IMG/VR virus record: IMGVR_UViG_3300035670_012166
Coordinates: 69,915 to 120,181 of that record
Source: a virus
Direction: 5' to 3' (one strand)
DNA length: 50,267 nucleotides
Under the pieces are notes generated by a model. That model saw only the letters and a list, made by a program, of their open reading frames with translations. It did not search any database and was not told the origin of the DNA. Both the position numbers and the translations under genes were made by a program. Shown piece after piece: positions 35,252-38,810 of the stretch. Position 1 is the stretch's first letter; the number at the start of each line of letters is the position of its first letter.

Positions 35252-35534
35252 TCCTGGGTAACTTAATGGTAAAGTGCCAAGCTGTAGATTGATAGCAGCT
35301 TATTAAAGTAATTTAATATAGAAAATTGTCGAAATTCAGTGAAAGCTAAGTCGAAAGATATGCCAACACTGAGCCAAGCCTGAAAAAGGAAGGTGCAGAG
35401 ACTATAATGACAACATCCTACTAGGTATTGCTAAGGATGATGGTATAGTCCAGACTACAAACAGATTTATCTGGTAGTGAAAACTATAGTAGTAAGTAAC
35501 TTGGAGAGTGAAAGTTCGAGCCTTTCTCCAGGAG
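35252..35534 (+). tRNA. tRNA-Asn(GUU), intron-containing; exons 35252-35285 and 35497-35534
   Basis: Spliced cloverleaf: acceptor TCCTGGG/TCCAGGA, D stem ACTT/AAGT, anticodon stem CCAAG/CTTGG with loop CTGT|TAA, T arm GAAAG-TTCGAGC-CTTTC, G73; upstream TGGTATAAT. Confidence 0.9.
35286..35496 (+). ncRNA. Group I intron (211 nt, IC3-like, no ORF) at tRNA position 35/36
   Basis: P1 AAGCTGT/GCAGCTT with U-G at the splice site, P3 TTGTC/GACAA, CTGAGCCAAG, GGTGCAGAGACTA and TATAGTCC (P7), terminal G. Confidence 0.9.
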
Positions 35535-38387: not shown

Positions 38388-38441
38388 AATTGTGGTATAA
38401 TTAGAGTGTAAGAGAAATACTTACAAATTAAAATTGAATAT

Positions 38442-38748
38442 GCCTCGTTAGCTCAGTGGAATTTAGAGCATCCGCCTTTTGGGGACCAGACAATAGAATG
38501 GTCAATTGGAGCTTTTATAGAGAATAAAAATCTATAAAATGGATGGTACTGTATCGGTGAAAGCTAAGTAGAAATATATGCTAATACCGAGGGAAGTTGA
38601 GAAGAAATTCTTTAACCCCGTAGAGACTATACGTACCACACCTGAAATGGTGAAGATATAGTCCAGACCACAAACTTAGAAATAAGGTAGTGAAAACTAT
38701 AGTGGTAAGCTAAGCGGAGGGTCAGTGGTTCGAGCCCACTACGAGGTA
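38442..38748 (+). tRNA. tRNA-Arg(UCU), intron-containing; exons 38442-38478 and 38710-38748
   Basis: GCCTCGT/ACGAGGT acceptor, GCTC/GAGC D stem with A after GG, TCCGC-CTT|CTAA-GCGGA anticodon arm, AGTGG-TTCGAGC-CCACT T arm. Confidence 0.85.
38479..38709 (+). ncRNA. Group I intron (231 nt, no ORF) at tRNA position 34/35
   Basis: P2 TTTTATAGA/TCTATAAAA, P3 TGGTAC/GTACCA, TCGGT/ACCGA, AGAGACTA and TATAGTCC (P7); 3' end GTAAG as in the Asn intron. Confidence 0.87.
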
Positions 38749-38810
38749 TTAAATCCCCTAAAGATTATTCTTTGGGGGATTATTCTTTTTTAAACCAGAA
38801 TAAATTAATT

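Follow-up and report, generated by a model that had tools for sequence, protein, structure and literature searches.

The window analysed here, a stretch of 50,267 nucleotides that closes a 120-kb IMG/VR virus record (32% G+C; CheckV completeness 34%), carries a phage tRNA-Arg(UCU) gene that is very probably split between U34 and C35 by an ORF-less, presumably self-splicing group I intron from a site-specific lineage shared by bacteria and phages. In the sequence, two tRNA halves flank an insert of 231 nt at positions 38442-38748. The split gene is seen neither by ARAGORN with default settings nor by the Rfam tRNA model; when its intron search is used, ARAGORN calls tRNA-Arg(tct) at 38441-38749 with an intron of 231 nt ('gcctt-intron-ctaag').

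The junction was determined by enumerating all exon 1 ends from 38472 to 38483 against all exon 2 starts from 38700 to 38715. Group I introns almost universally follow a U and end in G, and 38478|38710 is the sole join that combines both features with a 7-nt anticodon loop. It yields the loop CUUCUAA (CUU|CUAA) with anticodon UCU, the insertion lying between U34 and C35. A sequence-only reading of this DNA had proposed the same tRNA, site and junction, which the enumeration singles out and the ARAGORN intron search reproduces. It had also pointed to an Arg-type A in the D loop: A20, which follows GG in that loop, is unchanged across 19 homologues, in which the acceptor and anticodon stems covary. 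A20 is an identity element for arginine. Once joined, the exons form a perfect cloverleaf with anticodon UCU, A20 and a short variable loop, as judged by ARAGORN and the alignment; the discriminator base is A and the CCA end is not encoded. These features suggest that 38442-38748 is a genuine tRNA-Arg(UCU) gene, split by an intron and probably functional, whose product would be charged by ArgRS. The coordinates of the locus are given in Table 1.

Table 1. Coordinates of the split tRNA-Arg(UCU) locus and of the predicted intron helices (window numbering).
Feature	Position	Strand	Evidence or remarks
Extended -10-like motif TGGTATAAT	38393..38401	+	41 nt upstream of tRNA-Arg
5' exon of tRNA-Arg(UCU): acceptor 5' strand, D arm (11-nt loop, A20), anticodon-stem 5' strand, C32 U33 U34	38442..38478	+	ARAGORN -i; junction enumeration; stem covariation
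Group I intron, ORF-less, 231 nt, terminal G 38709	38479..38709	+	RF00028; lineage profile; helix model
P1	38476-38479 (exon C-U-U + intron U1) / 38508-38511 (GGAG)	+	Sequence, fold
P1-loop hairpin GACCA/UGGUC	38484-38488 / 38499-38503	+	Sequence, fold
P2, 9 bp	38513-38521 / 38531-38539	+	8/9 pairs compensatory; in energy fold
P3	38544-38549 / 38633-38638	+	5/6 pairs compensatory, 100% paired; encloses P4-P6
P4	38554-38559 / 38585-38590	+	100% paired
P5, GAAA loop	38563-38570 / 38575-38581	+	Outer two pairs 100% paired
P6	38591-38593 / 38617-38619	+	98% paired
P6a, GAAA loop	38599-38603 / 38608-38612	+	Energy fold of this sequence alone
P7 pseudoknot	38623, 38625-38631 / 38657-38664	+	Invariant, 95% paired; encloses P8, J8/7
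P8	38639-38642 / 38649-38652	+	100% paired, 2 compensatory pairs
P9	38667-38671 / 38702-38706	+	Two hairpins inside
P9a, GAAA loop	38675-38678 / 38683-38686	+	3/4 pairs compensatory
P9b	38688-38690 / 38697-38699	+	3/3 pairs compensatory
3' exon of tRNA-Arg(UCU): C35 U36 A37 A38, anticodon-stem 3' strand, 5-nt variable loop, T arm, acceptor 3' strand	38710..38748	+	Sequence; ARAGORN -i; alignment
Intrinsic-terminator-like hairpin (38752-38781) then T run	38752..38791	+	Terminator scan

The Rfam group I intron model RF00028 matches positions 38493-38689 with 45.3 bits (E 2.5e-10) in a local search of 601 nt, a score below the curated gathering score of 50 bits. Whole-window Rfam scans, at gathering as well as E-value thresholds, missed both introns of the window, which were detected by local scans only, so that failure to appear in a large scan says little. 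Throughout the Arg(UCU) lineage the model gives low scores: a Neobacillus copy reaches 33 bits, and five further members that were scanned, a Bacillus cereus copy among them, had no match at E <=0.001. With standard filters RF00028 misses most introns of the lineage even at E 0.001 (L064, L097, L181, L147 and L138).

The intron was then described by a helix model comprising P1-P9, the P1-loop hairpin, the P3/P7 pseudoknot and the tRNA stems, which was counted on 19 phage and bacterial homologues. In this alignment 92.4% of the cells are paired, compared with 34-40% when the partners are slid by 1-3 columns, and 51 pairs display compensatory (two-sided) changes, values that none of 500 shuffles reaches. 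Together with the RF00028 match, these values bear out the identification of the insert as a group I intron that had been made from the sequence alone. Covariation is found in P2, P3, P6, P8, P9a and P9b, while neither P7 nor the exon part of P1 varies; in the core, P3, P4, P6 and P8 are 98-100% paired and compensatory changes occur. The core agrees with the Rfam consensus around AGACUA ... AAGAUAUAGUC, and A38624 is bulged beside the P7 G-C pair that we take as the guanosine-binding site. In the model, this bulged A, J8/7 and the terminal G38709 are as would be expected of a working core. The energy fold of the intron has -55.3 kcal/mol (z = -3.96), with none of 200 shuffles as stable, and when calculated for the intron alone it recovers P1a, P2-P6, P8 and P9. 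The inner stem of P5 (23% paired) and P6a (37-55% paired) are unconserved in the aligned homologues and are taken solely from the energy fold of this one intron. The helix set fits the peripheral architecture of IC3 introns such as those in the Azoarcus and Anabaena tRNAs (P2 present, no P5abc extension, compact P9), and the Leu(UAA) profile matches as well; the modelled intron may thus be IC3-like, as in bacterial tRNA introns. On the plus strand its interior contains no ORF reaching 40 aa.

Particular attention was given to P1, which the sequence-only reading had described as weak (CUU/GAG, with GAG at 38509-38511) and as containing an extra hairpin, and from which it had suggested an atypical choice of the 5' splice site. 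Both elements are present and fold accordingly; the suggestion itself is not supported, a 3-bp exon part of P1 being usual in this lineage. The splice-site wobble is formed by U38478 and G38509, G38508 lying opposite the first intron base, and both this wobble and the terminal G38709 occur in all 19 homologues. The exon pairs C-G, U-A and U.G are likewise invariant in 19/19, and an internal guide GGAG[C/U] that pairs with the exon CUU is found in 47 of 47 lineage members, the window (GGAGC) included. Because of these two regularities, a weak P1 is, as far as the alignments tell, the norm of the lineage, as it is in the tRNA-Leu intron with its identical exon end. Many bacterial copies have a bare 4-bp P1 with a loop of 4-7 nt, P1 alone is no more stable than its shuffles (z = -1.0), and P10 in the phage clade amounts to one or two pairs at most. 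The anticodon stem formed by the exons compensates for a short P1. The GACCA/UGGUC hairpin is a P1-loop extension particular to a small phage clade.

The tRNA-Leu(UAA) intron shares with the window intron the 34/35 site, the 5' exon end CUU and the 3-bp exon part of P1, but it differs in the tRNA that it interrupts, in a 3' exon starting AAAA (CUAA in the window) and in belonging to a separate clade. Zaug et al. in 1993 are said to have shown that the tRNA-Leu intron relies on the anticodon stem.

To place the intron, we scanned for a 19-nt motif spanning P7-P9 and applied the rule of a preceding U and a terminal G to the ARAGORN intron calls. At least 119 IMG/VR contigs contain this motif. 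Among the viral matches listed, the split tRNAs include at least 66 Leu(UAA) at 34/35, at least 7 Met(CAU) at 33/34, at least 5 Arg(UCU) at 34/35, at least 3 Arg(UCU) at 33/34, at least 3 Asn(GUU) at 35/36 and at least 4 tRNA(UCA), besides others; among the bacterial matches listed (about 110 split genes) there are at least 41 Arg(UCU) at 34/35, at least 36 Leu(UAA), at least 25 Met(CAU) and at least 5 Arg(CCU) at 36/37. At least 8 other viral records hold a tRNA-Arg(UCU) split at 34/35, and the bacterial hosts of such genes include Bacillus cereus, B. pacificus, Neobacillus, Sporosarcina, Exiguobacterium, Enterovibrio, Arenicellales and a Cytophagales MAG. In GenBank, the 484-kb uncultured phage LR756508.1 has an unannotated gene of the same CTT|...G|CTAA layout. 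When 159 distinct introns were placed in a tree, those from the 34/35 site of Arg(UCU) grouped into a single clade (42 tips, support 1.0). The window intron falls in it, its neighbours being the viral copies L106, L064 and L097 and next the Cytophagales copy. With the window, its close relatives and all exons excluded, a profile of 36 Arg(UCU) introns gives the window intron 123 bits, as against 80 for the Leu(UAA), 64 for the Met(CAU) and 25 for the Arg(CCU) profile. A blastn search of the locus against 50,697 phage records returned partial P7-P9 matches only, and megablast with 20 kb retrieved no related phage. Judged by its U34/C35 site, its place in the tree, the exon-free profile and the guide GGAG[C/U], the intron is one more member of a widespread, under-annotated lineage, and its combination of tRNA and site is not new. 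The combination had at first been thought unusual, and a search of phage and metagenome tRNA-Arg(UCU) genes for the same insertion had been proposed; that search found the many carriers listed above, all in the one clade.

The census also brought up several other split genes. Three viral tRNA-Arg(UCU) genes (L006, L027 and L075) have an intron one base earlier (CT|...G|TCTAA, 33/34) and cluster outside the 34/35 lineage. Viral tRNAs with anticodon UCA, which are opal-suppressor-like, contain group I introns of about 340 nt at 34/35 (L008, L051, L104 and L110). In LR756508.1 (L253, locus 367-1017), adjacent tRNA-Lys(UUU) and tRNA-Arg(UCU) genes are both split at 34/35, with introns of 193 and 175 nt. 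The 286-bp 'tRNA-Arg' of Microcoleus phage My-WqHQDG (L252; OR578706.1, 84823-85108) is a tRNA-Arg(CCU) whose 213-nt intron ARAGORN places just after the anticodon (the junction is approximate), and a PD-(D/E)XK nuclease gene adjoins it. The window itself has a second split gene, tRNA-Asn(GUU) at 35252-35534, with a 211-nt group I intron between 35 and 36 that scores 81.7 bits with RF00028 and has relatives in the viral contigs L020, L077 and L106 and in one Clostridia MAG (L163).

The window intron is common to six viral contigs (the window, L064, L097, L106, L255 and L256). Across them the central 160 nt of the core have about 3 variable columns, and the cores of the window and L064 are identical at 195 of 202 positions (~97%). 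Their exons are of two types, differing at 10/34 and 19/39 positions, and the P1 loop (window 38479-38507) is hypervariable, with variation in 17 of its 20 columns. The P1-loop hairpin forms in each of the three introns that were folded (window, L064 and L097), and close relatives differ by compensatory changes in P9a and in this hairpin, which in a sequence comparison indicates selection on structure. No homing endonuclease was found in or beside the window intron; the neighbours of the split gene encode a sugar epimerase/dehydratase, a NUDIX protein, a DUF3431 protein and proteins of unknown function. An intron-less allele of the same gene was searched for and not found, the spliced anticodon arm seen in 7 viral contigs belonging to other tRNA-Arg genes at unrelated loci. 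In Exiguobacterium mexicanum (L191:4946-5413), a 155-aa PD-(D/E)XK ORF (PF11645, E 5.5e-36) lies inside a 633-nt tRNA-Arg(UCU) intron of the same lineage. This endonuclease-type ORF shows, as far as its domain assignment goes, that the lineage has mobile members, and trans-acting homing is therefore possible. Near-identical cores lie in two different phage tRNA-Arg genes whose anticodon stems show no co-conversion, which is odd for homing. A bolder reading, which we regard as conceivable but unlikely, is that the ORF-less core recently moved between two phage tRNA-Arg(UCU) genes without converting the anticodon stems, which would fit reverse splicing at the RNA level better than endonuclease homing, and that the P1-loop hairpin of 27-29 nt behaves as if under diversifying selection.

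With respect to expression, the motif TGGTATAAT occurs three times in the 50-kb window (35232, 35686 and 38393), always on the plus strand and each time just 5' of a tRNA gene, against a chance expectation of 0.71. It resembles a phage extended -10 promoter, and each tRNA looks like its own transcription unit. The tRNA-Glu gene carries TGGTATAGT. Downstream of the split gene, the terminator-like hairpin has a 13-bp stem with 5 G-C pairs, and seven such sites are present in the region where 1.5 are expected. The record contains four tRNA genes, of which two are split. The earlier impression that AGA is the most visible arginine codon was accurate: of the 1330 Arg codons counted in 107 long ORFs across the 120-kb record, 987 (74%) are AGA. 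That splicing affects phage translation is a conjecture.

From these data a pathway can be proposed. The gene would form a short transcription unit of its own that runs from the TGGTATAAT motif to the terminator, and the intron would adopt the P1-P9 fold. The short P1 (CUU/GAG, with its U.G wobble) would present the 5' splice site. The exons would be held together by their 5-bp anticodon stem, which would stand in for a long P1 or P10. An external guanosine would attack after U38478; the terminal G38709 would then enter the P7 pocket, and exon ligation would give back the loop CUUCUAA. A tRNA reading AGA may then be completed by RNase P, trimming of the 3' end and addition of CCA.

Two alternatives concern what the intron interrupts and where it came from. 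A different junction would give another tRNA, for example Lys(UUU) from CUUUU...AA, and several Lys(UUU) joins do yield a 7-nt loop, because the window intron happens to begin with UU. Nevertheless, none of the Lys(UUU) or other alternative joins with a 7-nt loop combines the preceding U with a terminal G. Relatives with the same core start their intron with G, A or C, leaving UCU as the sole possible anticodon: in L064, L097 and L114 the exon CTT is followed by G or C and the intron ends ...G|CTAA. A20, C35 and the short variable loop also fit arginine, and the probability of another tRNA appears negligible. Birth of the Arg intron in the phage by transposition from the tRNA-Asn intron, or the reverse, is suggested by the 3.2 kb that separate the two and by long identical stretches in P5, P7 and P9. 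Over 197 aligned intron positions, however, their identity is 62%, in comparison with 75% between the Arg intron and the Cytophagales bacterial copy and 72% with Bacillus copies; they fall in different clades, and the Arg(UCU) profile gives 123 bits to the Arg intron and 44 to the Asn intron, which scores best with the Leu(UAA) profile (87 bits). A sister relationship of the two was rejected on the same clades, identity and discordant profile scores, and we hold local transposition to be very unlikely. Most likely, the intron is a selfish passenger acquired by lateral transfer among tRNA-Arg genes, and not from the neighbouring tRNA-Asn intron.

The other alternatives concern function. The locus might be a decaying pseudogene with a non-splicing intron remnant, from which no tRNA-Arg is made: its RF00028 score falls short of the gathering threshold, neither P1 nor P10 is strong, and host tRNAs could make the gene dispensable. 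This state is hard to reconcile with core helices that are all intact, with exons that make a perfect cloverleaf and with the near-constant core of the six contigs, where P9a and the P1 hairpin differ by compensatory changes; low Rfam scores, moreover, typify the whole lineage, and we attach very little weight to decay. The phage could depend on host tRNAs, and conservation among the six contigs is the extent of the evidence for selection. In the opposite direction, the intron might be useful, gating the supply of the AGA-reading tRNA in a GTP/Mg-dependent manner, or shielding the gene or its precursor from an anticodon nuclease or a DNA endonuclease. The two split genes out of four, the prevalence of AGA and the retention of the intron in six related contigs would agree with such a role, which we nonetheless consider improbable, given that the lineage is scattered over unrelated bacteria and phages, some with a homing-endonuclease-type ORF, as is the signature of a selfish element, and that nothing in the sequence points to regulation.

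Split genes of this kind have been described in bacteria. A tRNA-Arg-TCT interrupted by a group I intron was reported in 2016 for the giant sulfur bacteria Beggiatoa 'BOGUAY' and Thiomargarita nelsonii Bud S10 (PMC4853749, citing MacGregor et al., 2013); the likeness to the window gene lies in the identity of the tRNA. The bacterial Arg(UCU) loci of our census (at least 41) share with the window the U34|C35 site, the guide GGAG[C/U], the core and the clade, whereas the window intron is phage-borne, shorter (231 nt) and provided with the P1-loop hairpin. Its P5 also has a CUAAG...UAUG motif and a GAAA loop that are lacking in the aligned bacterial copies; the motif resembles an 11-nt tetraloop receptor. 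The Arg(CCU) introns of alpha- and beta-proteobacteria and the Azoarcus tRNA-Ile(CAU) intron are likewise small, ORF-less, of the IC3 type and located in the anticodon loop, but they lie 3' of the anticodon (36/37), in a clade of their own. A survey published in 2008 and covering 29 genomes described the B. cereus group as being without group I introns in tRNA genes (PMC2504315), which is contradicted in newer genomes by the group I introns in tRNA-Arg(UCU) of three members of that group (L147, L200 and L141).

On the phage side, the introns of T4 (td, nrdB and sunY), Twort, SPO1 and Bastille are also group I ribozymes but interrupt protein-coding genes and often contain endonuclease ORFs. According to a 2014 review, every phage intron known by then was in a protein gene (PMC3984707), and Devoto et al. 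(2019) described 'enigmatic' introns in the tRNAs of Lak megaphages, reported as the first (PMC6784885). Our literature search turned up no published account of a group I intron in a phage tRNA-Arg. The Leu intron of Agrobacterium phage Atu_ph07 is 85% identical to the window intron over P7-P9. In that phage (L004; MF403008.1, ~112.93-113.27 kb) the tRNA-Leu(UAA) has a group I intron at 34/35 that is not annotated as such, and a 'hypothetical protein' CDS (AUZ94936.1) is annotated over the tRNA-Leu 3' exon and its downstream flank.

In the wider picture, phage tRNA introns contradict the 2014 statement that confined phage introns to protein genes, although little about them was found in print. 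The apparent transfer of an ORF-less core between tRNA-Arg genes could inform the old question of how such introns move. The present locus is chiefly a point of annotation and census, one further example. Default tRNA finders and Rfam thresholds miss the gene, and the tRNA set of the phage and its match to AGA are therefore under-reported; the same under-reporting extends to many bacteria and phages, in which routine annotation will give tRNA-Arg(UCU) as absent.
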